In this document: positions 1 to 40,906 of the stretch, in pieces | Position numbering within the stretch: position 1 is the first letter of the stretch | How the letters are laid out: each line of letters starts with the position of its first letter | DNA from: a virus | Virus record (IMG/VR): IMGVR_UViG_3300045988_118152 | Location: 1-40,906 of that record | Reading direction: 5' to 3' (one strand) | DNA: 40,906 bases | The notes under the pieces: model-generated | What the model was told of the DNA's origin: nothing | The model's input: only the letters and a program-made list of their open reading frames with translations | The model's database searches: none | Translations under genes and position numbers: made by a program

Positions 1-371
1 CACAGATGAAACCCGACTTAGACAAGCTCCAACGCGCCGTCGGCGACGCCCTGGCCCCCTACAAGCGGCCCGGTGTCCTGCGTGATGACTCCCGGATCGT
101 CGGCTGGTCCGCCGTCAAGCGCTACGCCGACGACACCCACCCCGCCGGCGTCATGGTCCGCATCTCGAAGGCGCAGGACCACCTCACCGGCCAGTTCCTC
201 ACCAGTGTCGCCGACGTCGGTGGCACACCTGCCGGGGCGGCCATCCTCGACGCCTACGACACAGTGTTCACTCGCGGGTACGGCGATTGGGTCACGCCAG
301 CGAACGAGTACGGGTACGCGGACCACGAGCTCGACCTACCCGCACGCCTCGCAGTCGTGGATGGGATCTGA
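1..371 (+). CDS. rusA: RusA-family Holliday junction resolvase, 3' part. The gene starts at 40596 and crosses the circular junction; positions 1-55 duplicate 40852-40906.
   Basis: ORF 6..371 is in frame with the ORF opening at ATG 40596. The joined product is about 208 aa and carries the RusA-type motif KPDLDKLQRAVGDAL...LRDDSRIVG. Confidence 0.7.
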   Translation, partial: QMKPDLDKLQRAVGDALAPYKRPGVLRDDSRIVGWSAVKRYADDTHPAGVMVRISKAQDHLTGQFLTSVADVGGTPAGAAILDAYDTVFTRGYGDWVTPANEYGYADHELDLPARLAVVDGI

Positions 372-2821: not shown

Positions 2822-3412
2822 ATGAGGATCGAAAACCTCTACCCCAGACCGGTGCGCAGCGACTTCGCCACCACCAACCAAGTCCGCGACGACGCGGCCA
2901 CCGCCTACGACGGCAAAGCCCGCGCCCTCCTCGAACGCAGCGGCGGAGACGCCATCGGAGCCATCAGCCTCCTCATGCTCGCCGCCGACCAGCGCAAGGC
3001 CACCACAGAGCAGGCCCTCGCCGCCACCGTCCGCGAACAGCGCGACACCATCGACACCCTCAAGGAGCAGGTGAACCTCTACCGCGACCAGTGGAAGACG
3101 GCCGCCAATAGCGCCGCCGGCATCCACGCCGACCTCTGCCAGAAGGAGGTCGACGCCGAGCGGATCACCCAACTCCAGTCCATCCTCCGTGCCGTCACCG
3201 CCTCAGATGGAGTCTTCGCCCGCCTGTACACCGACGACCTTCGAGCCCTCCCAAACGGCACCGTCGTCCGCGACGAGTACGGCCGAGCCTGGACTCGCAT
3301 CGATGACGAGGACGGTGGAGTCTGGGCTACCCCCAGCGAGGACACCACCATGCCGTCCTCCTACCTCACAGCCAAGTCCGCCGTCTACCTCGCATGGGTG
3401 GTAGGCCGATGA
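2822..3412 (+). CDS. Hypothetical protein, 196 aa, with a coiled-coil-like central part
   Basis: Track ORF; first gene downstream of the 2724 promoter. Confidence 0.6.
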   Translation: MRIENLYPRPVRSDFATTNQVRDDAATAYDGKARALLERSGGDAIGAISLLMLAADQRKATTEQALAATVREQRDTIDTLKEQVNLYRDQWKTAANSAAGIHADLCQKEVDAERITQLQSILRAVTASDGVFARLYTDDLRALPNGTVVRDEYGRAWTRIDDEDGGVWATPSEDTTMPSSYLTAKSAVYLAWVVGR

Positions 3413-3669
3413 CCCGCCTCGACCACGTGGGCGGCGACGGCGTCGACGTCACTGCCGCCGCTGAGTTCCTGTGCGCCGCCGCTGACTACCAGGACAGTGA
3501 GACCGCAGCCCTCGACGAGCGGGACCGGCAGCGGCGAGGGGCCGGCCGAATCGACGCCAACACCCCCTGGGGTGCGCTCGGCCGGCACGCCACCAACCGG
3601 GCACGTCTCCTCGACTCGCTCGCCAACCTCCTCTACGTCGACTCCGACACACTCGTCGACGGCATCTAA
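3409..3669 (+). CDS. Hypothetical protein, 86 aa
   Basis: ATG 3409 overlaps the upstream TGA (ATGA). In frame with track ORF 3394..3669. Confidence 0.5.
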   Translation: MTRLDHVGGDGVDVTAAAEFLCAAADYQDSETAALDERDRQRRGAGRIDANTPWGALGRHATNRARLLDSLANLLYVDSDTLVDGI

Positions 3670-4699: not shown

Positions 4700-5553
4700 A
4701 CCTCATCATCGACAAGCCCGGCATCTACCACGGCCTCGACGAGCAGTGGTACCACTCCAACCCCACCCCCCACCGCTCCCTGTCATCAACCGAAGCCAAG
4801 ATGATCCTGGACGCTCCCGCGACCCTCCACCACTACAGGAACAGTCCGCGAGCGCCCCGCCCGGAGTTCGACTTCGGTAGCGCCGTCCACTCGCTCGTGC
4901 TCGGTGTGGGCGCGCACCTGGAGTGCTACCCGGAGGACGTGCTGTCCGCGTCCGGGTCGACGGGGACGAAGGCGGCCCGAGAATGGGCCGCTGACGTTCG
5001 CGCCGACGGCGGAATCCCCCTGAAGGAGGACGTCTACGACGCCATCCACGACTGTGCCGCCGCCGTCACCGAGCACCCCCTGTGCCGTCGCATCTTCGCC
5101 GACGGAGACCCCGAGGTCAGCGTCGTCAGCGAGGACCCCGACACCGGCGTGTGGATGCGTGGCCGCCTGGACTGGATCATGCCCCCCGCCGGCGGGAATG
5201 GCGCGCACGTCCTGGTGGACCTGAAAACCACGGACGACGCCCAGCCCGTCGCCTTCACGAGGACGGCCGCCCGCTACGGGTACGACGTACAGCGAGCCTG
5301 GTACCGGCACATCTGGCGTGACCTCACCAGCGAGGACGCCCGCTTCCTCCACGTCGTCGTCTCCAAGCGCCCCCCATACCTCGTGTCCGTCTGCGAGATG
5401 GATTGGAGCTTCGACGACCTCGGGAAGGTGAAGGTGGAGAAGGCGCTGCGCCTGTACCGGGACTGCCTCGAATCGGGGGACTGGCCTGGTATTCCCGCCG
5501 AAGTCCACCAAATCTCTGCCCCCGCTTACTACCTCGACTCAGACAAGGACTGA
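4696..5553 (+). CDS. PD-(D/E)XK exonuclease (RecE/Cas4-like recombination nuclease), 285 aa
   Basis: Motifs GRLDW, VDLKTT and YDVQRAWY (the D...D/ExK...QxxxY pattern of RecB-family nucleases). ATGA overlap with the upstream gene. Confidence 0.65.
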   Translation: MNLIIDKPGIYHGLDEQWYHSNPTPHRSLSSTEAKMILDAPATLHHYRNSPRAPRPEFDFGSAVHSLVLGVGAHLECYPEDVLSASGSTGTKAAREWAADVRADGGIPLKEDVYDAIHDCAAAVTEHPLCRRIFADGDPEVSVVSEDPDTGVWMRGRLDWIMPPAGGNGAHVLVDLKTTDDAQPVAFTRTAARYGYDVQRAWYRHIWRDLTSEDARFLHVVVSKRPPYLVSVCEMDWSFDDLGKVKVEKALRLYRDCLESGDWPGIPAEVHQISAPAYYLDSDKD

Positions 5554-9666: not shown

Positions 9667-9794
9667 ACTGGCTTGATTGGCTCCAGGTGTTCTTCCTATA
9701 TGTCGCACTCGCGTTCGCCTACGCAGAGATCCGCAGGCTCCGGGGGCGCGTCGACGCACTTGAAGGCGCCAGGAAGGACCAGGACGGTGACTGA
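9663..9794 (+). CDS. Possible small membrane protein, 43 aa; not in the ORF track
   Basis: GTGA overlap at its start and GTGACTGA overlap at its end. Product begins VNWLDWLQVFFLYVALAFAYAEI... Confidence 0.35.
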   Translation: MNWLDWLQVFFLYVALAFAYAEIRRLRGRVDALEGARKDQDGD

Positions 9795-10554
9795 GACCCG
9801 CTCGTGCCCGGTGACGGGGGAGCCGCTGCGTGGTGACCGGTACGTGAGCGTGACGGCCTGCCGGCGGCTCGCAGGGGCCACCCAGGGTATCTCGGCGCTC
9901 ATGGGCGCCCTCGACGTTGCCAAGGCTGGGCTGAGGCGCGGCCAGGGCGGCGGGGCCAGCGTCACCCCGTGCAGTCGGCCCCCGGTGCGGCTCGGAATCA
10001 TCCAGGCCGCGAGCGCCCACGAGCGCACGCTACTGAAGTGGGGGAAGTGGGCGGCGCATGACCTGCTCGGGATCGGCACGCCGCAGACGTGGACAGAGGT
10101 CTCATGGGCGCTCAGGGGCGCGTCCGCGCACCCCGGCCGCCCCGAGCTAGCGACCCTCATCCCCGAGGTCCTGGCCGCCATCCGGGCCATCACGGCGCTC
10201 GTGGACGTCCCCGAGGACGCGCGGTTCTACGGCAGGTGCCTCACCGACCTGGGGGATCGGGGCGTCTGCGACCAGCCCATCTACGCCACGGCGGGATCCT
10301 CGTGGGCCAGGTGCCCGGCCTGCGACACCCAGTGGGAACTCCAACCGCTCCTCGCGAGCCACCTGGAGGCAGCCGCCGACTGGCTCGTCACCCCCGACGA
10401 AGGCGCCCGCCTCCTCACCCAGGCGGGCTACCCCACGAGGCCCGGCACCATCCGACTCTGGAAACACCGAGGCCACCTCACCGACCACGAAGGCAGATAC
10501 CACGTCGGCGACCTCCTCGCCGCCGCAGCACGCAGAAAGGACAAGGCCGCATGA
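9787..10554 (+). CDS. Putative DNA-binding protein (Cys cluster plus C-terminal HTH), 255 aa
   Basis: GTG 9787 in frame with track ORF 9673..10554. Contains ...RCPACDTQW... and a C-terminal VTPDEGARLLTQAGYPTRPGTIRLWKHRGHL (MerR/excisionase-type HTH appearance). Confidence 0.45.
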   Translation: MTETRSCPVTGEPLRGDRYVSVTACRRLAGATQGISALMGALDVAKAGLRRGQGGGASVTPCSRPPVRLGIIQAASAHERTLLKWGKWAAHDLLGIGTPQTWTEVSWALRGASAHPGRPELATLIPEVLAAIRAITALVDVPEDARFYGRCLTDLGDRGVCDQPIYATAGSSWARCPACDTQWELQPLLASHLEAAADWLVTPDEGARLLTQAGYPTRPGTIRLWKHRGHLTDHEGRYHVGDLLAAAARRKDKAA

Positions 10555-10766
10555 CGCCAGAGATGATCCAGACGGCGATCACCGCCGTCGCCGAGGAAGC
10601 CGTCAAGGCATCCATGAAGGGAAGCCTCGCCGCCGCCATGATGGGACACGCCGCCGCCATCGGAGGCCTCGCAGCCGGCCTACCAACCGCCGACGCCACC
10701 GAGGCCATAGGCCAGGTGATCGACATGCTCACCGAAGCCCGAGACGCCATCGGAGACATGAAATGA
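10551..10766 (+). CDS. Hypothetical protein, 71 aa
   Basis: ATGA overlap with the upstream gene. In-frame tail of track ORF 10089..10766. Confidence 0.45.
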   Translation: MTPEMIQTAITAVAEEAVKASMKGSLAAAMMGHAAAIGGLAAGLPTADATEAIGQVIDMLTEARDAIGDMK

Positions 10767-10915
10767 GCGACGTCGAGCCTGAGGAAGAGGTGAAAGGCAA
10801 CCTAGAAGAGGCGCTAGAAACACTCGACTATGCCCTCAGGAAGGCCATATGGGGGACTCTCGCGATTGTCCTACGCCTGCCCTACCTTGACCCAGACCAG
10901 GACCGCCGAACATGA
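10763..10915 (+). CDS. Hypothetical protein, 50 aa; not in the ORF track
   Basis: ATGA overlap with the upstream gene. Ends 3 nt before the 10919 hairpin. Confidence 0.35.
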   Translation: MSDVEPEEEVKGNLEEALETLDYALRKAIWGTLAIVLRLPYLDPDQDRRT

Positions 10916-10918
10916 CGA

Positions 10919-10947
10919 AGGCGCCCCACCATCCAGGTGGGGCGCCT
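10919..10947. terminator. Bidirectional GC-rich hairpin between convergent operons
   Basis: AGGCGCCCCACC (10919-10930), loop ATCCA, GGTGGGGCGCCT (10936-10947): a 12-bp perfect stem. Confidence 0.6.
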
Positions 10948-10958
10948 CCCGTGTTCTC

Positions 10959-11186
10959 CTAGCGCTTGCGCGTCCAGTCTCCCAGCCACTTATCCAACGT
11001 CTGCCGAGTCACCCCAGCAGCCGCAGCCACCGCCGTCTTCGCCGCGCCGCCACGCACCGCAGCCACCGCCGCAGCACGACGCCGACCCTCAACCTCAGTC
11101 AGAACCTTCTGCGCCACCTCAACCTCACAACGCAGACGATCCAACTCCAACAAGCTCAGCCGCTCCGTCGTCGCCTCGACACTCAT
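10959..11186 (-). CDS. HTH DNA-binding protein, 75 aa; last gene of the minus-strand cassette
   Basis: Track ORF. GGAAGGAGAA RBS. C-terminal KTAVAAAAGVTRQTLDKWL helix-turn-helix. Confidence 0.6.
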   Translation of the reverse strand: MSVEATTERLSLLELDRLRCEVEVAQKVLTEVEGRRRAAAVAAVRGGAAKTAVAAAAGVTRQTLDKWLGDWTRKR

Positions 11187-11246
11187 CGCTTCTCCTTCCA
11201 GGTCAGGCCCAGCCCCCGCGATGAGGGCCGGGCATGTGGGTTACGT

Positions 11247-11543
11247 TCAGGCGCGCGCCGTGCGCCGTGCGGCAATCTGACGGTCGCAGGACCGCGCCAG
11301 GCGGCGGGCCTCGGCGATACTGGCCCGCAGGGCCTCGACCTGGGTGCTGTCCGGGAATCGGAGGACGTTCGGACCGTACTCAGTGATGGCCTCGATGATC
11401 GCACCCCTGCGGCGAGCGGCGACACTGACGCCGCCGCACTCGGCATCCCACCACGCGCCGTTGCGGGTGACAGTGATGCTCTCAACTGGGACTCCGATCT
11501 CTTCTGACAGTGCAATGGCGACACGCTCAGGAATGGTGCTCAT
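11247..11543 (-). CDS. Hypothetical protein, 98 aa
   Basis: Within track ORF 11247..11570. ATG at 11543 is preceded by GAAAGGAAA; 11570 is an alternative start. Confidence 0.5.
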   Translation of the reverse strand: MSTIPERVAIALSEEIGVPVESITVTRNGAWWDAECGGVSVAARRRGAIIEAITEYGPNVLRFPDSTQVEALRASIAEARRLARSCDRQIAARRTARA

Positions 11544-11577
11544 TTTGGGTTTCCTTTCTGGGGTGGGCATTGGGTGG

Positions 11578-11913
11578 TCAGTCGTCCAGGGCGTCCAGGA
11601 TCATCCGGCGGTAGGCGGCGACCGCCTCCGTCACGGCCGGGTCAGGGTGACGCTCCGTCGGCCCGTGCTGGCCGACCTGCATCTCCTCGGGCCACTCCGA
11701 GCGGGGCAGGTAGCGCTCCACCGCAGGCCAACACTCCGTGTCCTCGGTGGTGATGAACCGGCCGGGCTCGGTCTCGATCACGAAGGCGGCCTGCACTTCG
11801 TCGTCGAAGGCGTCCAGGTGGAGGCGGATCACCGCGCCGTCGTCGGCGGTAGCGACCAGGACAGCGCCCGGGTAGTCGGAGGCGGTGGCGGGGTTCCAGT
11901 TGTAGCGGGCCAT
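11578..11913 (-). CDS. Hypothetical acidic protein, 111 aa
   Basis: Track ORF. GGAAAGGAA RBS. Confidence 0.55.
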   Translation of the reverse strand: MARYNWNPATASDYPGAVLVATADDGAVIRLHLDAFDDEVQAAFVIETEPGRFITTEDTECWPAVERYLPRSEWPEEMQVGQHGPTERHPDPAVTEAVAAYRRMILDALDD

Positions 11914-11934
11914 GGGGGAGTTCCTTTCCAGGGG

Positions 11935-11959
11935 CGCCCGCCCCAGAACGGGGCGGGCG
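11935..11959 (-). terminator. Intercistronic GC hairpin (attenuator or processing site?)
   Basis: CGCCCGCCCC / GGGGCGGGCG: 10-bp perfect stem with a 5-nt loop, between the 59-aa and 111-aa genes. Confidence 0.3.
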
Positions 11960-11970
11960 ATGGGGGATGG

Positions 11971-12150
11971 TCAGTGGTTCTGTCGGGTGATGACGACGAC
12001 GCCGGCCAGAGCGAGGGTGAGGCTCGCGCCCCACACGCCCCAGCTGAAGGCGTCAGCGTCGAGGCTGGCGAGGATGCCGCCGAGGGCGAGGTTGGCGCTT
12101 GCGACGGCGGCCATGAAGGCGAGGCGGCGACGGCGGTCGGTGGTGGTCAT
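11971..12150 (-). CDS. Small membrane protein, 59 aa (two TM); not in the ORF track
   Basis: AGGAAGGAA RBS. Product: MTTTDRRRRLAFMAAVASANLALGGILASLDADAFSWGVWGASLTLALAGVVVITRQNH. Confidence 0.55.
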   Translation of the reverse strand: MTTTDRRRRLAFMAAVASANLALGGILASLDADAFSWGVWGASLTLALAGVVVITRQNH

Positions 12151-12241
12151 GTGGTGTTCCTTCCTGGGAGGGGGAGCGGTATCCTTGCCGGATGGGCGGG
12201 GATTGAAGGCACTGCGATTGCTTTCAACCCCCGCCGCTTAC

Positions 12242-12346
12242 TCAGTCATCCTTGCGGTGGCGGCCGTGGCCGCGACGCGGGATGGCGAGCCAGATCGAGA
12301 CCATCGTTCCGATGAGGCTCGCTACCGAGATGATCCGGTCGATCAC
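12242..12346 (-). CDS. Small membrane peptide, 34 aa (one TM plus basic tail); not in the ORF track
   Basis: GGAGGAACC then GTG. Product: VIDRIISVASLIGTMVSIWLAIPRRGHGRHRKDD. Confidence 0.4.
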   Translation of the reverse strand: MIDRIISVASLIGTMVSIWLAIPRRGHGRHRKDD

Positions 12347-12395
12347 GGTTCCTCCTCTCTGTGTAGTTGGGGTATCGGGCGTTCCCGATGGCTTA

Positions 12396-12425
12396 AGTGT
12401 ATGTCTACATACCCAATGAGGTCAA
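12396..12425 (-). promoter_or_regulatory. Candidate promoter of the minus-strand cassette, with an overlapping palindrome
   Basis: On the minus strand: TTGACC (12425-12420), 18 nt, TACACT (12401-12396). Palindrome GTATGTctACATAC at 12399-12412. 5'-UTR hairpin ATCGGGcgttCCCGAT at 12374-12389. Confidence 0.45.
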
Positions 12426-12429
12426 ACCC

Positions 12430-12610
12430 GGGGGGTGCACGCAAACAGTGGGGTAGGCCACAGTAAAGGGGGCGGGGCTACAGCAAGGGGGCACCCATCA
12501 TGGACACCCACCCCCTCTCACAGCAGGGGCACCCCCATCAAGCAGGGGGCAGGGGTATCGATAGGCGGGGGAGGGGTGACAGCAATAGGGGTACCCCACA
12601 ACAGACACGC
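12430..12610 (+). repeat. Phased G-tract repeat array (CAGCA(A)GGGG-type motif, 20-bp register)
   Basis: Motif copies begin near 12446, 12461, 12481, 12521, 12541, 12581 and 12601. There are 11 runs of 4 or more G on the + strand between 12430 and 12591. Composition turns C/A-rich after about 12600. Confidence 0.6.
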
Positions 12611-12843
12611 CCCACCCCGTGACCAAACCGCAACACGCCAGCGTGCACCACCACTTGCACGCCCACACTGAAACGCGCATCATACGAACATAGGCAAAGT
12701 GTCAGAGCCCAGCCGTCCACGAGACTGCTGGGCTCCGCTGTTGCCTACCCTTCTGGGGAGAAGGGAATGGGGAGAAGCGACGCGGGCCGCACGTGCACAG
12801 CAGCACGACGCGGCCCGCGTGCGCACACGCGCGAGGAGGACCG

Positions 12844-13164
12844 ATGACCACCTCACGCACCGGCACAACACGCTGGCTCCACAACGCAGCCACAGCTAAG
12901 CGCTCAGCGCGCGCGGCAGGACTAGAGCACTGTCCACTCTGCCACGTCCGCCTCACCTGGGACGCTGGCCTACTGCCTAGTAGCCCTGAGGCCGACCACA
13001 TCGTGCCTCACAGTCGAGGTGGAAACGACTCATTAGAGAATATTCAAATCATCTGCCGCAAATGCAACCAACGCAAAGGAAACGGCAGAAAACCACGGCC
13101 ACCGAAACGCAAACGTCACACAGTGGCCCGAATTCAACAGACAACCGACACAGAAACCTGGTAG
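12844..13164 (+). CDS. HNH endonuclease (packaging-associated), 106 aa
   Basis: GAGGAGGA RBS, then ATG 12844. Contains CPLCH...DHIVPHSRGGNDSLENIQIICRKCNQRKG. Sits directly upstream of the terminase genes. Confidence 0.85.
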   Translation: MTTSRTGTTRWLHNAATAKRSARAAGLEHCPLCHVRLTWDAGLLPSSPEADHIVPHSRGGNDSLENIQIICRKCNQRKGNGRKPRPPKRKRHTVARIQQTTDTETW

Positions 13165-13276
13165 AGTAGCCACCAGAAACGAGGGACAGGGGGGCAATAC
13201 CCTCCCGTCCCCCATTCTCGCCCCCCCGTGGGTATAGCGGCATCTCTCCCCACTGTTTTTTCCCAAGGGGGTGCTC

Positions 13277-13585
13277 ATGAGTGCCGCGAGGAAACTCCAC
13301 GCCGTGAAGGACGGCGAGACAGCCCCCATGGCCCCTACGGCACCCGCGAGCGTCCTGGATGCGACGGAGCATGGGGACCGTAGGGATGTGCTGGCCGCGA
13401 TCCGTCGTCGTCTTGCGGATGCGGTGGGCACCTCTGAGACGCCCCCGCGTGACCTGGCTGCCCTGACGCGTCGCCTCATTGAGGTTGACAGGGAGATCCG
13501 GGAGATTGACCTGGCTCGCGAGGAGCGTGAGCGGCAGACGGCGACGGAGGCGACGGAGGATGAGGATGGGCTCGGCGACATCTGA
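13277..13585 (+). CDS. Terminase small subunit (putative), 102 aa
   Basis: Position between HNH and TerL. AAGGGGG RBS upstream. Small charged protein with a C-terminal coiled segment. GTG 13271 is an alternative start. Confidence 0.55.
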   Translation: MSAARKLHAVKDGETAPMAPTAPASVLDATEHGDRRDVLAAIRRRLADAVGTSETPPRDLAALTRRLIEVDREIREIDLAREERERQTATEATEDEDGLGDI

Positions 13586-34051: not shown

Positions 34052-35302
34052 ATGGCGTACGGGGAAGGTACCGTCTACCAGCGCAAAGACGGGAAGTGGG
34101 TCGCATCGGTGGAGGCCGGCTACACGGCTAGCGGCGGTCGACGCCGCATCACCAGGGCGCGAGCCACCGAGGCCGAGGCCAAGCGCGCCCTGCGCGCCAT
34201 CCGCCGCGAGGTCCTCGCCGAACAGCAGTCCACCGTCGTCAACCCCCGCACCACCCTCAAGGCGTGGATCGACACCTGGGCGCCCGGCTACAAGCGCACC
34301 GCACGCCCCCGCACCTACAGCAACGACCTCTCCCTCCTCGGCAAGTGGGTGACCCCCACCATCGGGCACCGCCGCCTCACCGACCTCACCGTCACCGACC
34401 TCCGCAAGATGGAAGCCGGGATGAGGCAGGCCGGCCGGTCGACGACGTCGATCCGCTACGTCCGACTCATCCTCCATCGGGTCCTCAAGGCGGCAATCGT
34501 CGAGGGGCACCGGATCCCCGACTCCGTGATGCTCGCCCCCAAACCCAAGGCCGCCGCCTCCACGCGCGAGGCCATCCCCGCCGCCGACGCCGCCGCCCTC
34601 CTCAAGGCCGCCACCGAGAAGGACACATGGCTGCCCCTCCCAGACTCCACCAGCCTCCCCACCCAGCGTGCGCGCCGCCTCGCCACCGAGCAGGACGCCA
34701 GCCGGTGGGTCGCCGCCCTCCTCCAAGGGATGAGGCAGGGGGAGTGCCTCGGCCTCACCTGGGACCGGATCGACCTCGACGCCGGCACCCTCACCGTAGA
34801 CCGCCAGCTCGTCGAGATGACCGCCGCCGAGGACGTCGACGGCACCGACGGCGTGGTCTACGAGCACCTGGTGGACGGCTACTACCTGGGGCCGACCAAG
34901 ACGAAGGCCGGCGCGCGCGTCCTGCCCCTGGTACCGTGGATGTCGGCCGCGCTGGCGGCCTGGCGCGACCAGTGCCCGACCTCCCCCTACGGGCTCGTGT
35001 GGCCCCGACCCGACGGCGGTCCCTGGTCGAAGAAGGATGACCGCCTGGCGTGGCGCGCCCTCCAGGACGTCGCCGGCGTCCACAAGGACGATGGGGGGTA
35101 CTATCTCGTCCACGAGGCCCGCCACTCGACGGCGACACTCCTCATGGCCGCCGGGGTCCCCGCCACCGTCGTCATCGCCATCATGGGCCACACCGCCATC
35201 ACCACGTCGATGGGCTACCAGCACGCCGACCTGGACCAGGCCCGCCAAGCCTTAGAGGCCGTCGCACCCCGCCTCGGCCTCACCTCCACCCCAACCCCCT
35301 GA
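34052..35302 (+). CDS. int: Tyrosine integrase, 416 aa
   Basis: Catalytic signature: ...LLQGMRQGECLGL..., HEARHSTATLL, IMGHTAITTSMGYQH (R...HxxR...H...Y). Adjacent to attP. Confidence 0.9.
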   Translation: MAYGEGTVYQRKDGKWVASVEAGYTASGGRRRITRARATEAEAKRALRAIRREVLAEQQSTVVNPRTTLKAWIDTWAPGYKRTARPRTYSNDLSLLGKWVTPTIGHRRLTDLTVTDLRKMEAGMRQAGRSTTSIRYVRLILHRVLKAAIVEGHRIPDSVMLAPKPKAAASTREAIPAADAAALLKAATEKDTWLPLPDSTSLPTQRARRLATEQDASRWVAALLQGMRQGECLGLTWDRIDLDAGTLTVDRQLVEMTAAEDVDGTDGVVYEHLVDGYYLGPTKTKAGARVLPLVPWMSAALAAWRDQCPTSPYGLVWPRPDGGPWSKKDDRLAWRALQDVAGVHKDDGGYYLVHEARHSTATLLMAAGVPATVVIAIMGHTAITTSMGYQHADLDQARQALEAVAPRLGLTSTPTP

Positions 35303-35316
35303 AAGGAAACCCACCC

Positions 35317-35817
35317 ATGTCACTCCTCGACGCCGCCTGCATCAAGACCGACGACGGCACTATCCACGTCACCCCGAACGGAGTCATTGGCCTTCCTGGC
35401 CTCCTCACCCCAGACATCCCCGCCACCGACGTCGTCGACATCGCCGTCGAGGACGGGAAGGAAGCCAGCAAGCGGGTCACCGCCGCCCGCGTCGCCGCCG
35501 TCGGCATCTTCGCCCTCGCCATCAAGAAGAAGGTCGACGCCACCAAGTTCATCATCATCGAGACCACCGACAATATGCACGTCTTCGAGATCAACGCGAA
35601 GCGGCACCGCGAGGCGCTGGCTTTCGTGAAGCGCGCCAAGGTCGCTGTCGCCCGCGGCCAGGAGTACGCCGCACGAGAGGTCGAGGCGCCCGCCGTCGAG
35701 CCGGCCGAGGACGCCGCACCAGAGCCGAAGCGGTGGTGGCAGAAGACGACTGGTGACCTCATCAACGAGCGCCGTGCCCGCAAGGGGAAGGAACCGCTGC
35801 GTTTCGGTGCTGCGTGA
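35317..35817 (+). CDS. Hypothetical protein, 166 aa, between the integrase and repressor genes
   Basis: GAAAGGAAA RBS. In frame with track ORF 35050..35817. Has a central hydrophobic stretch AARVAAVGIFALAI. Confidence 0.55.
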   Translation: MSLLDAACIKTDDGTIHVTPNGVIGLPGLLTPDIPATDVVDIAVEDGKEASKRVTAARVAAVGIFALAIKKKVDATKFIIIETTDNMHVFEINAKRHREALAFVKRAKVAVARGQEYAAREVEAPAVEPAEDAAPEPKRWWQKTTGDLINERRARKGKEPLRFGAA

Positions 35818-35889
35818 CCGATTCTTGACGGAACCGTTACTGTCCGACCTACTGCCGCCACCGACAATCGTCGGTGAGGTCAGATGACT

Positions 35890-35922
35890 AGAGCCCCGCC
35901 CAGTGAATCTGGGTGGGGCTCT
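35890..35922. terminator. Bidirectional hairpin between the 35317 gene and the repressor gene
   Basis: AGAGCCCCGCCCA / TGGGTGGGGCTCT: 13-bp stem with one G-T pair and a 7-nt loop. A second 7-bp hairpin lies at 35859-35876. Confidence 0.5.
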
Positions 35923-35942
35923 TCGTCGTCTATGGGGCGCGG

Positions 35943-36224
35943 TCAGCAGGAGAACTGCGGGACCCGCTGCTCCTCCCATAGGCGATCCTCGGCGCGGGAG
36001 ATGATCGTGGAGACGCTGACTCCGAGGGCGTCAGCGAGCGCGCACAGGGGCTCGAAGGTGATGGGGCGCTCCCCCTGAAGGAGGCGCATGAGGGTGCGTA
36101 GGGGGACGCCCGAGGCTGCGGAGAGTCCGCGCACAGTCATCCCCTTCTCCTCCCTGAGGTCGCGCAGTTCGGCGGCCGCGGCGGCGTTGAGTCCGGTTTC
36201 CGGGTTAGTTGCTCGCGTGCTCAT
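35943..36224 (-). CDS. XRE-family HTH repressor (CI-like), 93 aa
   Basis: ATG at 36224 within track ORF 35943..36599. Contains LREEKGMTVRGLSAASGVPLRTLMRLLQGERPITFEPLCALADALGVS. Divergent from the Cro-like gene. Confidence 0.75.
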   Translation of the reverse strand: MSTRATNPETGLNAAAAAELRDLREEKGMTVRGLSAASGVPLRTLMRLLQGERPITFEPLCALADALGVSVSTIISRAEDRLWEEQRVPQFSC

Positions 36225-36232
36225 GTCTCCAC

Positions 36233-36325
36233 TGTGCCACATTGGGCACCAAGGTGACGGATGGGTAACGGATTTCGGAGGACTTTCCCAGGGACTTGCA
36301 AGGTGCCCATATGGGCACCTACAGT
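36233..36325. promoter_or_regulatory. Immunity switch: divergent promoters and operators
   Basis: Rightward TTGCAA (36296-36301), 18 nt, TACAGT (36320-36325), with the perfect palindrome GGTGCCCAtaTGGGCACC (36302-36319) as spacer. Degenerate copy TGTGCCACATTGGGCACC at 36233-36250, next to the repressor start. ACGGAT direct repeat at 36257 and 36268. Confidence 0.6.
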
Positions 36326-36332
36326 TGCCCAC

Positions 36333-36560
36333 ATGGACACCACAAGCCAGCCGCCCCCCATCATCCGGGCCATCGAAGCCCAGATGGCGGCCACCGACAC
36401 CACCATCCTCCAACTCAGCAAAGAGGCTGACATCCCCCGCTCCACCCTCCAACGCAGGCTCCGAACCGGACGCGGCCTCCAGCTCGACGAGATCAACCGC
36501 ATCGCCGCCGCCCTCGGAACCACCGCCAGCCAGATCATCACCCAGGCAGAAGCCGCCTAA
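36333..36560 (+). CDS. Cro-like HTH regulator, 75 aa
   Basis: ATG 36333 lies about 7 nt after the -10, so the transcript is leaderless-like. Contains TILQLSKEADIPRSTLQRRLRTGRGLQLDEINRIAAALG. Confidence 0.65.
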   Translation: MDTTSQPPPIIRAIEAQMAATDTTILQLSKEADIPRSTLQRRLRTGRGLQLDEINRIAAALGTTASQIITQAEAA

Positions 36561-36578
36561 CCCCCTAAGGAAACCCCC

Positions 36579-36890
36579 ATGTGCAACCCCGCCACCCAAC
36601 GCCCCATCTCAGAGGCCATGCCCCTCGTGACCGCCCTCATCGCCGAAGCCGAGCGCAACTGCATCGATATCAATAGCGTCAACGTCTTCGCCCACGCCGG
36701 AGGCCGCTTCAACATCGACTTCATCGCCTACGACGGCGGAGCCCAGGCCCTCGCCGACCTCCTCGACCTCACCCCAGACGTCATCTTCACCTCCCACGGG
36801 GCGACCTTCCAGGGCGTCAGCCGCACCGTCGGCCGCTGGACCATCCAGTCGCACTACCCCCTCCCTGACGTCGAGGAGGAGGCGGCATGA
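36579..36890 (+). CDS. Hypothetical protein, 103 aa
   Basis: Track ORF, with AAGGAAA upstream. Confidence 0.5.
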   Translation: MCNPATQRPISEAMPLVTALIAEAERNCIDINSVNVFAHAGGRFNIDFIAYDGGAQALADLLDLTPDVIFTSHGATFQGVSRTVGRWTIQSHYPLPDVEEEAA

Positions 36891-40609: not shown

Positions 40610-40906
40610 TTTCTTCGTCCCCGGTGAGCCGATCACCGAGGGCTCCACCAAGGCGTTCACGTCCGGTCAGCGCATCGTCATCACCCACGACCGGGGACGC
40701 GAGTTGGACGCGTGGCGCATCAAGGTAGCGCACGCCGCCGAAGCCGCCGCACAGGCCGCCTACTGGGAACCCCGCTACGACGGGCCAGTCGAGGTGTGGG
40801 CAGAGTTCCGACTCCCCCGCCCCAAGAGCGCCCCCAAGTCCCGCAAGCACGCACAGATGAAACCCGACTTAGACAAGCTCCAACGCGCCGTCGGCGACGC
40901 CCTGGC
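40596..40906 (+). CDS. rusA: RusA-family resolvase, 5' part (continues at window position 56)
   Basis: ATG 40596. Same frame as the ATG at 40857, which equals position 6 of the window. Confidence 0.7.
   Translation, partial: MDSFSFFVPGEPITEGSTKAFTSGQRIVITHDRGRELDAWRIKVAHAAEAAAQAAYWEPRYDGPVEVWAEFRLPRPKSAPKSRKHAQMKPDLDKLQRAVGDAL
40852..40906. repeat. 55-bp terminal duplication of window positions 1-55 (circular closure overlap)
   Basis: CACAGATGAAACCCGACTTAGACAAGCTCCAACGCGCCGTCGGCGACGCCCTGGC is present at both ends. Confidence 0.9.

Follow-up and report, generated by a model that had tools for sequence, protein, structure and literature searches.

A putatively self-regulated cassette of small, exchangeable genes in an uncultured temperate siphovirus from the human oral cavity

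Introduction

Operons of the acr-aca type (Aca1-Aca14; PMC9410906, PMC13551039) combine a strong promoter with small, diverse and often acidic genes, which are followed by a small helix-turn-helix (HTH) gene. The HTH gene is located downstream of the small effectors, an inverted repeat lies within the core promoter and effector-HTH fusions occur (PMC9410906), while the Aca protein represses its own operon and also regulates adjacent downstream operons, with RNA hairpins present between the genes (PMC13551039). Guilt by association with Aca at such regulator-anchored loci has been the most productive route to anti-CRISPRs and other proteins of anti-defence. The present work concerns a cassette of five minus-strand genes (10959-12346), designated A34, B59, C111, D98 and E75, in the IMG/VR virus record IMGVR_UViG_3300045988_118152, whose 40,906 nucleotides are referred to here as the window. 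The analyses suggest that this cassette may well be a self-regulated accessory operon, autorepressed by E75 with an Aca-like logic and carrying an exchangeable cargo of genes for phage-host conflict, a reading held with evenly balanced confidence.

Other phage loci offer further points of comparison. The exclusion protein gp15 of HK97 is encoded by a moron and belongs, together with Imm of T4, to the known small inner-membrane exclusion proteins, and the immI region of P22 comprises arc, ant and mnt. Among toxin-antitoxin systems, the RelI antitoxin, an actinomycete-specific protein of 85 aa, contains a coiled coil as well as short helices, and its gene follows that of the toxin (PMC13284704). 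The initial annotation of the window had presented the cassette as an autonomous unit and as a candidate membrane-acting exclusion, defence or toxin-antitoxin-like system.

Results

Gene organization and promoter/operator module

The five open reading frames (ORFs) were all found on the minus strand with the positions, lengths, start codons and ribosome-binding sites (RBSs) given in the initial annotation. A34 (12242..12346; 34 aa, GTG start) is the first gene and is followed by B59 (11971..12150; 59 aa), C111 (11578..11913; 111 aa), D98 (11247..11543; 98 aa) and E75 (10959..11186; 75 aa), the last gene of the operon. Their G+C content at third codon positions (GC3) ranges from 0.72 to 0.93, and each is preceded by an RBS of the GGAGG, GAAAGG or GGAAGG type. 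The description of A34 and B59 as unannotated had to be corrected, as JGI calls both as hypothetical proteins on the same contig.

Upstream of A34, a promoter/operator module (12381..12437, minus strand) comprises a -35 hexamer TTGACC (12425-12420), an 18-nt spacer, a -10 hexamer TACACT (12401-12396) and a conserved initial transcribed stretch, TAAGCCATCGGGAAC. The AT-rich palindrome reported earlier is exact (GTATGTctACATAC, of the form GTATG-N4-CATAC; 12399..12412), and it lies in the spacer and overlaps the -10 hexamer. TTGACC-18-TACACT is the sole sigma-70-like site within 10500-13400. Within the single genome neither element is remarkable: a scan of the whole genome (~40 kb) returned 2 promoter-like sites against ~3 expected, which is no excess over chance, and the palindrome, which occurs once in the genome, is of a pattern that arises at least once in 23 of 100 shuffled sequences. 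The reality of both therefore rests on comparative data.

Related loci, which come from oral metagenomes, were gathered via exact protein look-up, homologue search and IMG/VR. An E75-like match was found in 47 loci; L053 and L054 were dropped, being longer TerS-like or other HTH proteins that have only the GVTRQT helix in common with E75. All close relatives were retrieved through genes of the cassette, and the collection gives no sample of phages without the locus. The module was recovered in 60 copies (51 distinct sequences) across 45 loci, with the consensus TTG-N10-GTATG-N4-CATACACT-t.AGcCATCGG, in which TTG, GTATG, CATAC and ACT each carry ~2 bits of information. Both half-sites are unchanged in all 60 modules, and the centre of the operator is free, with 21 different central 4-mers. 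In all 39 loci with enough upstream sequence, the module lies 500-1400 nt upstream of E75. The invariance of the left half-site is not demanded by promoter function, since this half-site sits in the spacer; together with the free centre and the dyad symmetry, it gives the element the appearance of an operator for a dimeric HTH protein, and from these sequence features we infer that it is the binding site of an E75 dimer. A protein bound between the -35 and -10 hexamers causes repression.

A second module begins 5 nt past the E75 stop codon in 16 of 43 relatives, ahead of extra small genes, and two loci carry three copies; the window itself has no second module. In L017-L019 (about 5220-5320) the second promoter is deleted and the 3' end of E75 is fused to the intergenic hairpin region of the second unit, so that the downstream cargo is presumably expressed via read-through. 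The palindrome was also considered as an operator shared with the CI/Cro immunity switch, which was discarded because it is unique in the genome; as it is not shared with the CI/Cro region, expression of the cassette in lysogens is possible.

E75, the constant gene of the cassette

E75 is composed of a long helix and a C-terminal HTH. The HTH proposed earlier was recovered as a match to Pfam HTH_23 (E 5e-4, under the gathering score), and several family members have a precomputed PF13384 match; in NCBIfam and Pfam the similarity is only of the generic HTH_23 or IS630 type and falls under the cutoffs. The E75 family comprises at least 177 clusters, across which the recognition-helix region G58-L68 is unvarying except for L64 and K66, and the N-terminus is the most variable part of the protein. 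The ratio of nonsynonymous to synonymous polymorphism (pN/pS) of 0.43 indicates purifying selection. E75 and the operator always co-occur, and E75 follows the cargo in 35 cassettes.

Two alleles of the E75 C-terminal tail differ in what follows them. Loci with the tail ...VWQRTS carry a second module in 16 of 19 cases, compared to 0 of 23 for the tail ...DW(T/K)RKR (Fisher p = 6e-9, without correction for shared ancestry). This association marks the 3' end of E75 as a recombination junction. Two other roles for E75 were considered and rejected: that of a small terminase, given that TerS is encoded separately at 13277-13585, and that of an excisionase, given that the integrase gene is 22 kb away. 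In both cases the overlap of the operator with the promoter of E75 itself also spoke against the assignment.

Cargo modularity and D98

The 35 complete cassettes, which extend from the promoter to a conserved terminal hairpin, encode 19 protein families with E75 as the constant member. Rather than the fixed five-gene system first described, the locus is, on these comparative grounds, a regulator-anchored, recombination-prone slot with exchangeable small cargo. The position before E75 is occupied by D98 in 8/35 cassettes and by an acidic 78-82-aa protein (family f05) in 19/35, with C111 or B59 elsewhere. Alternative leader genes encode a 109-aa GNAT-like protein together with an 85-aa protein, or an acidic 98-aa protein, and the second transcription unit adds four to six further families. 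The cargo consists of small proteins; among 13 that are soluble, 9 have a pI of 4.1-5.4. A 203-aa ORF called in L013 was judged spurious, as it runs across G+C-rich repeats.

D98 is a basic protein under purifying selection (pN/pS 0.23), and its AlphaFold2 (AF2) model is of high confidence (predicted local distance difference test score, pLDDT, 94), with an alpha helix, five beta strands and a long alpha helix. Foldseek comparison of this model with the PDB found no significant neighbour (best E 0.4) and no RelE, ParE or BrnT match. The earlier statement that none of the five products belongs to a known family was upheld by searches of Pfam, PHROGs, PADLOC and NCBIfam, where none scored above threshold, and no PADLOC defence model matched any of the five even at an E cutoff of 1. 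Profile searches thus covered all five products without placing any in a family; structure comparison covered C111 and D98 and found no PDB neighbour for either. Ten accessory proteins of the relatives, compared with curated libraries, gave a weak GNAT signal only. This signal belongs to a protein of 109-111 aa, the first gene in some cassettes, with an Acetyltransf_7 match just under the cutoff (E 1.6e-5); it is encoded at L014 2-313, L010 4919-5104 and L021 4600-4935 and in L041, L047, L051 and L052 (family f13).

The membrane peptides A34 and B59

Hydropathy analysis agreed with the earlier calls of one transmembrane (TM) segment in A34, which also has a basic GHGRHRK tail, and two in B59, which has an N-terminal RRRR and a W-x-x-W motif. 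The two genes occur together in 22/22 loci, always as the first two genes, and are the commonest cargo; in 13 of the 35 cassettes both are missing and soluble acidic proteins stand in their place. The minimal cassette (L028, L031) consists of the promoter, A34, B59, E75 and the terminator, in ~715 bp. Neither peptide showed similarity to any described family in Pfam or PHROGs.

A34 forms two clades, of 34 and 38 aa, whose DNA has strongly diverged; in both, the peptide still has one TM helix and a basic G-x-HRK tail, and the gene is still preceded by a GGAGG RBS and followed by the 13-bp stem. The pN/pS ratio within the clades is 0.17 and 0.35, and in the 38-aa clade most distinct DNA sequences give an identical peptide (7 among those listed). 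By these patterns of sequence conservation A34 is a real gene. B59 likewise falls into two clades, of 59 and 60 aa, with a similar layout in which both hydrophobic segments and W-x-x-W are kept; its frame is open in 21/21 copies, compared to 20-44 stops in the other frames, and its pN/pS of 0.46-0.70 indicates weak constraint.

C111 and its remote relatives

C111 was confirmed as an acidic soluble protein (pI 4.3, net charge -14). It is present in 27/35 complete cassettes and missing in L009, L023, L028 and L031, of which L009 and L023 otherwise resemble the window. The family contains 27 close clusters, with 33 invariant columns in the wider family; the invariance of C111 in L001-L007 was discounted because these loci were retrieved by exact C111 identity. 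The AF2 model is of moderate confidence (pLDDT 77.6) and shows a four-stranded beta-meander followed by helices. Foldseek found no significant neighbour of this model in the PDB (best E 0.5) and no RelE, ParE or BrnT likeness, and in BFVD it matched only uncharacterised metagenomic siphovirus proteins. The sequence profiles of C111 and D98 had no match among PDB sequences.

An exhaustive profile search identified 71 remote C111 representatives, some of them tandem duplications. Five of these relatives carry a C-terminal segment with HTH matches below threshold, mostly to HTH_23, which is also the best family of E75. These segments were rejected as E75 homologues, since the best score of 7.7 bits compares with 11.9 for shuffled controls; with the E75-family hidden Markov model (HMM) no better than on shuffled controls, the fusion claim is limited to a C111 domain plus an HTH. 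In the 2.56-Mb chromosome CP065521.1 the order is tmRNA, integrase, tRNA-Thr, GNAT-like protein, C111-HTH fusion and Ros/MucR protein, and these face the lysis and tail genes of a prophage. The second fusion with recovered context likewise follows an integrase. The order GNAT-like protein, C111, HTH is common to the cassette L014 and the prophage L021, and the product of the GNAT-like leader gene of L014 is 81% identical to the protein upstream of the fusion in the CP065521.1 prophage.

Additional variants of the domain were observed. In P0149, P0150, P0163 and P0170 a C111 domain is joined to an acidic C-terminal region ending in ...EPYE(E/Q)AEDRLL(A/E)(K/R)xGL...W, with an additional N-terminal extension in P0163 and P0170, and P0151 and P0161 consist of two tandem C111 domains. 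The 5994-aa protein P0148 gave 28 separate matches to the C111 profile, all at profile positions 11-44 (the beta-hairpin part); it is probably no true relative but a repeat protein that contains similar hairpins.

A C111 homologue is also encoded by the Schaalia/Actinomyces phage LC001, a lytic Schaalia phage (PMC11032452), where it is co-oriented within the early recombination module. Just downstream of it is a homologue of the DUF3799 exonuclease of the window. In the unannotated LC001 sequence (L008; ON920540.1), the ORF at 3019-3663, just upstream of the C111 homologue, contains an FxGSGTT motif, which we take to be typical of DNA methyltransferases.

Hairpins and terminator

The two hairpins noted initially both fold. 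The 6-bp hairpin in the 5' untranslated region (12374..12389, minus strand; -8.5 kcal/mol, z -2.4) is a weak feature, found only in cassettes that begin with A34, with varying loops, and absent at second-copy promoters and in L013 and L017. The terminal hairpin (10917..10949; -32.9 kcal/mol, z -6.4) is a bidirectional terminator, shared with the convergent plus-strand early operon, and in the form GGCGCCCCACC-loop-GGTGGGGCGCC it ends all 35 complete cassettes. With promoter, operator, terminator and HTH regulator of its own, the cassette qualifies as the autonomous unit first proposed.

Three strong intergenic stem-loops on the minus strand had been overlooked. After A34, a 13-bp stem (12195..12235; -27.1 kcal/mol, z -5.9) is retained in L015 with a replaced loop and a G.U pair changed to A-U, and 1 of 91 intergenic positions between A34 and B59 varies among close relatives. 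A stem-loop with a 10-bp G+C stem follows B59 (11935..11959; -27.4 kcal/mol, z -4.3), and the one after D98 (11207..11233; -27.0 kcal/mol, z -2.9) has an allelic version in relatives that preserves the pairing. Rfam returned no credible match.

Genome setting and host

The first 55 nt of the window (1-55) recur at 40852-40906, which marks a circular assembly overlap; the window accordingly represents a whole genome of ~40.85 kb with an arbitrary start. The phage is a temperate siphovirus with a G+C content of 67%, and an identical sequence is present in a human oral metagenome assembly. A megablast search of the window region against 50,697 GenBank phages found zero matches, and tblastn against the same set gave zero matches for E75, D98 and B59, with C111 alone distantly matched, in LC001. 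The large terminase (TerL) shares ~55% identity with its counterparts in Propionibacterium freudenreichii phages. An E75 homologue of 78% identity is annotated in Actinomyces massiliensis, which makes an oral Actinomyces the probable host. No integrated copies were found when 185,579 species-representative genomes were scanned with E75 and C111 (the broad C111 alignment A4 was too divergent for genome scanning), and the locus is absent in phage G4, the nearest cultured relative by TerL.

The cassette is flanked by a convergent operon on one side and a divergent one on the other. The plus-strand early and replication block ends at 10915 (last ORF 10763-10915). Its last large gene (9787-10554, plus strand) encodes a 255-aa product whose sole match is PHROG 908, of unknown function (E 5e-24); G4 has a sigma-70-family sigma factor at the equivalent position. 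On the other side, a 410-bp non-coding repeat region (12430-12843) lies between the cassette promoter and an HNH endonuclease gene (12844-13164), which is directly upstream of TerS (13277-13585) and TerL, followed by head, tail and lysis genes. Within the repeat region, a G-rich element of the form GGGGnnGGGGnnACAGCAAnGGGG is repeated four to six times (12448-12590), with partial conservation in relatives, and a hairpin with 13-bp arms occurs at 12705-12735 (-22.5 kcal/mol, z -3.4). The region may serve to control the late operon, with promoter and leader terminator, or as a set of binding sites for packaging proteins. The G+C content of the cassette (0.68 at 11-12 kb, compared to 0.64-0.71 genome-wide) is not distinct from that of its flanks.

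Several relatives (L001, L004, L015, L018, L019) have no called HNH gene upstream of TerS, and in G4 the HNH gene is the last one before the right end of the linear genome. By analogy with G4, a cos site probably lies at ~13165-13276, and the distance of the cassette from the right end would then be 0.8-2.3 kb. In lambda the right genome end enters the cell first; if the same applied here, the cassette might be among the earliest genes open to transcription.

The integrase gene (34052-35302) is 22 kb from the cassette. A CI-like repressor is encoded on the minus strand inside the ORF 35943-36599 (HTH at ~36011-36175), divergent from a Cro-like gene (36261-36560). The cassette and the repressor had been described as the only minus-strand genes, which proved not entirely correct, as a further minus-strand ORF of 219 aa (35320-35979) was found. 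This ORF has no family match and a GC3 of 0.65, lower than that of most genes; it is downstream of the CI-like repressor and adjoins the integrase. Probably co-transcribed with the repressor, it represents the more conventional candidate for lysogeny expression in the genome.

Discussion

The regulatory architecture has good support: a dyad operator overlaps a sigma-A-type promoter, and the operon ends with a small, conserved HTH gene, which makes autorepression by E75 through the operator probable. In the course of events that we infer, which takes in binding and repression by E75, the timing of expression and the functions of all cargo genes, host RNA polymerase would start at the sigma-A-type promoter and read A34, B59, C111, D98 and E75 up to the shared terminator, and the stem-loops after A34, B59 and D98 would probably grade or stabilize the message. 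E75 would bind GTATG-N4-CATAC across the spacer and the -10 hexamer by means of its dimerising helix and HTH and would throttle its own operon, so that expression would surge as the DNA enters a cell and then settle at a low level limited by E75 itself, without dependence on the CI/Cro switch, which is located at a distance of 24 kb. In the relatives, the same operator right after E75 would place the second small-gene operon under the same control. The remaining genes would constitute a payload exchanged between phages by recombination and are taken here as conflict genes. C111 and the soluble, mostly acidic alternatives would most likely act against host defences or in host takeover, as in acr-aca operons, and the obligate A34/B59 pair would act at the cell membrane, possibly excluding other phages. 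It is quite possible, if short of probable, that the payload is mainly one of anti-defence, and a payload of defence or exclusion has a lesser chance.

The comparison with acr-aca operons brings out both sides of this reading. In common with these are the strong promoter followed by small, diverse and often acidic genes and then a small HTH gene; the conserved inverted repeat inside the core promoter; a regulator family whose conservation and distribution far exceed those of any cargo gene; reuse of the binding site on the adjacent downstream operon (16/43 relatives); and the intergenic hairpins and effector-HTH fusions. The small, acidic, shuffled cargo and the copy in LC001 point to counter-defence or host takeover.

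A number of observations weigh against an Aca-like operon with anti-defence cargo. E75 has no detectable homology to described Aca families or structures, its profile found no Aca match among all PDB sequences, solved Aca proteins included, and membership in an Aca family cannot be claimed for it; co-occurrence is the evidence from which binding of E75 to the operator is predicted. None of the cargo is a known Acr or anti-defence protein (15 cargo families had no match in Pfam, PHROGs or NCBIfam), and the commonest cargo is a pair of membrane peptides, atypical for an acr operon yet sufficient, with E75, for the minimal cassette, which would fit an exclusion moron better. The acidity of the cargo is weak evidence in a high-G+C actinobacterial setting. 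The HTH matches of the C111 fusions each lie below the Pfam threshold, with the E75-family HMM not above shuffled controls, and both fusions of known context adjoin integrases, where genes expressed in lysogeny are typically found. Exclusion or lysogeny-expressed functions are suggested by these integrase-proximal fusions, by the obligate pairing of the two membrane peptides and by the minimal A34-B59-E75 cassette. We know of no characterised acr loci in oral Actinomyces.

The alternative that survives best is that of the initial annotation, in which the cassette is a moron expressed from the prophage to protect the lysogen: A34 and B59 would block DNA entry or cause abortive infection of superinfecting phages, E75 would hold expression at a tolerable level, and C111 and D98 would be accessory. 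The cassette shares with morons such as that of HK97 gp15 a promoter and terminator of its own, a location between two operons, opposed to their transcription, a gene content that varies among collinear relatives and small membrane proteins. The leading position and obligate pairing of A34 and B59, which form the minimal cassette with E75, agree with such a role, as do an operator that is not shared with the CI/Cro region, so that the immunity repressor would not silence the promoter, and C111-HTH fusions in integrase-proximal prophage slots. A34 and B59 also share the small integral-membrane nature of superinfection-exclusion proteins (Imm, Sp, gp15-like), to which they have no sequence similarity. 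However, A34 and B59 are replaced by soluble acidic proteins in 13/35 cassettes, PADLOC gave zero matches, C111 also belongs to the early operon of the lytic LC001, and none of the 185,579 species-representative genomes holds an integrated copy. The cassette further differs from morons in being multi-gene, with a dedicated autoregulator and a conserved operator, and in a base composition that matches the rest of the genome and so gives no hint of foreign origin. The slot more typical of lysogeny expression is that of the 219-aa ORF, which follows the repressor. A lysogen-protecting moron is on this balance rather unlikely.

A secondary immunity system similar to immI of P22 is improbable. E75 would in that case be an Arc/Mnt-like protein limiting an antirepressor (C111 or D98) of the CI-like repressor, and the cassette would affect the lysis-lysogeny decision or induction. 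As in P22, an autonomous small-repressor operon lies among or next to late genes, far from the primary immunity region, and C111 is tied to HTH regulators by fusion and synteny and has relatives that adjoin integrases. Unlike immI, however, the cassette has no homology to Ant, Arc or Mnt domains in Pfam or PHROGs and no divergent second repressor; no second lysogeny-specific repressor is evident that would hold the promoter fully off. Its cargo is variable, C111 and D98 each being dispensable in relatives with the same backbone, and LC001 retains C111 although it is lytic (PMC11032452).

A type II toxin-antitoxin system of the RelS-RelI kind, with E75 as the HTH antitoxin that neutralises and co-represses a toxin encoded just upstream (D98), is more improbable still. 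The E75 family profile matches RelI of M. tuberculosis (PMC13284704; PDB 9sdc) over 41 aligned positions in the long helix and the first part of the HTH, but the match is borderline (E 0.0028, 21 bits). Both are actinobacterial proteins of ~80 aa with a long dimerising helix and short HTH-like helices, encoded by the downstream gene, and the promoter of the cassette would be autoregulated through a palindrome. Against this, the gene before E75 is inconstant (D98 in 8 cassettes, f05 in 19, C111 or B59 in others), and the models of D98 (high confidence) and C111 (moderate) have no RelE-, BrnT- or ParE-like neighbours, so that the toxin-antitoxin-like character first suggested finds neither a constant partner nor a toxin fold. 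Moreover, RNase toxins do not share the strong acidity of C111 and f05, and E75 varies most at its N-terminus, the part that in RelI is wrapped around the toxin.

It is hardly credible that A34 and B59 are not genes and that the 5' part is a long structured leader or RNA element, as the near invariance of A34 and the A34-B59 spacer in DNA among close relatives and the weak constraint on B59 might suggest, because both ORFs persist with architecture and RBS in a second clade of heavily diverged DNA, most of the distinct DNAs of the 38-aa clade encode one peptide, the other frames are filled with stops and Rfam gave no match.

As to novelty, all five proteins are new, and the layout is known from phage anti-defence (anti-CRISPR) and moron loci. 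It is tentatively proposed that E75 represents a new family of Aca-like autorepressors that marks an island of counter-defence and exclusion genes in oral Actinomyces phages, with C111 as a new effector domain, D98 and A34/B59 as a new, obligate membrane module of two peptides. If this were true, GTATG-N4-CATAC would be a search handle for many more effectors, and C111 would be a new anti-defence effector domain with ~70 remote families across Actinomycetota, fused to HTH domains in prophages. The E75 family and the 14-bp operator provide an easily searchable anchor over ~19 uncharacterised families of small proteins, in a phage lineage of human oral Actinomyces that is abundant though uncultured; oral Actinomyces and their phages are poorly studied. 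Actinomyces carry CRISPR-Cas systems, for example Cas9 of A. naeslundii. If the cargo acts in the conflict between phage and host, its members would be testable candidates for new inhibitors or exclusion factors, and the compact, autoregulated promoter-operator pair may be of use in Actinomyces genetics; if the cargo consists of ordinary early genes, the locus would still be a well-defined case of modular gene exchange around a fixed regulator.

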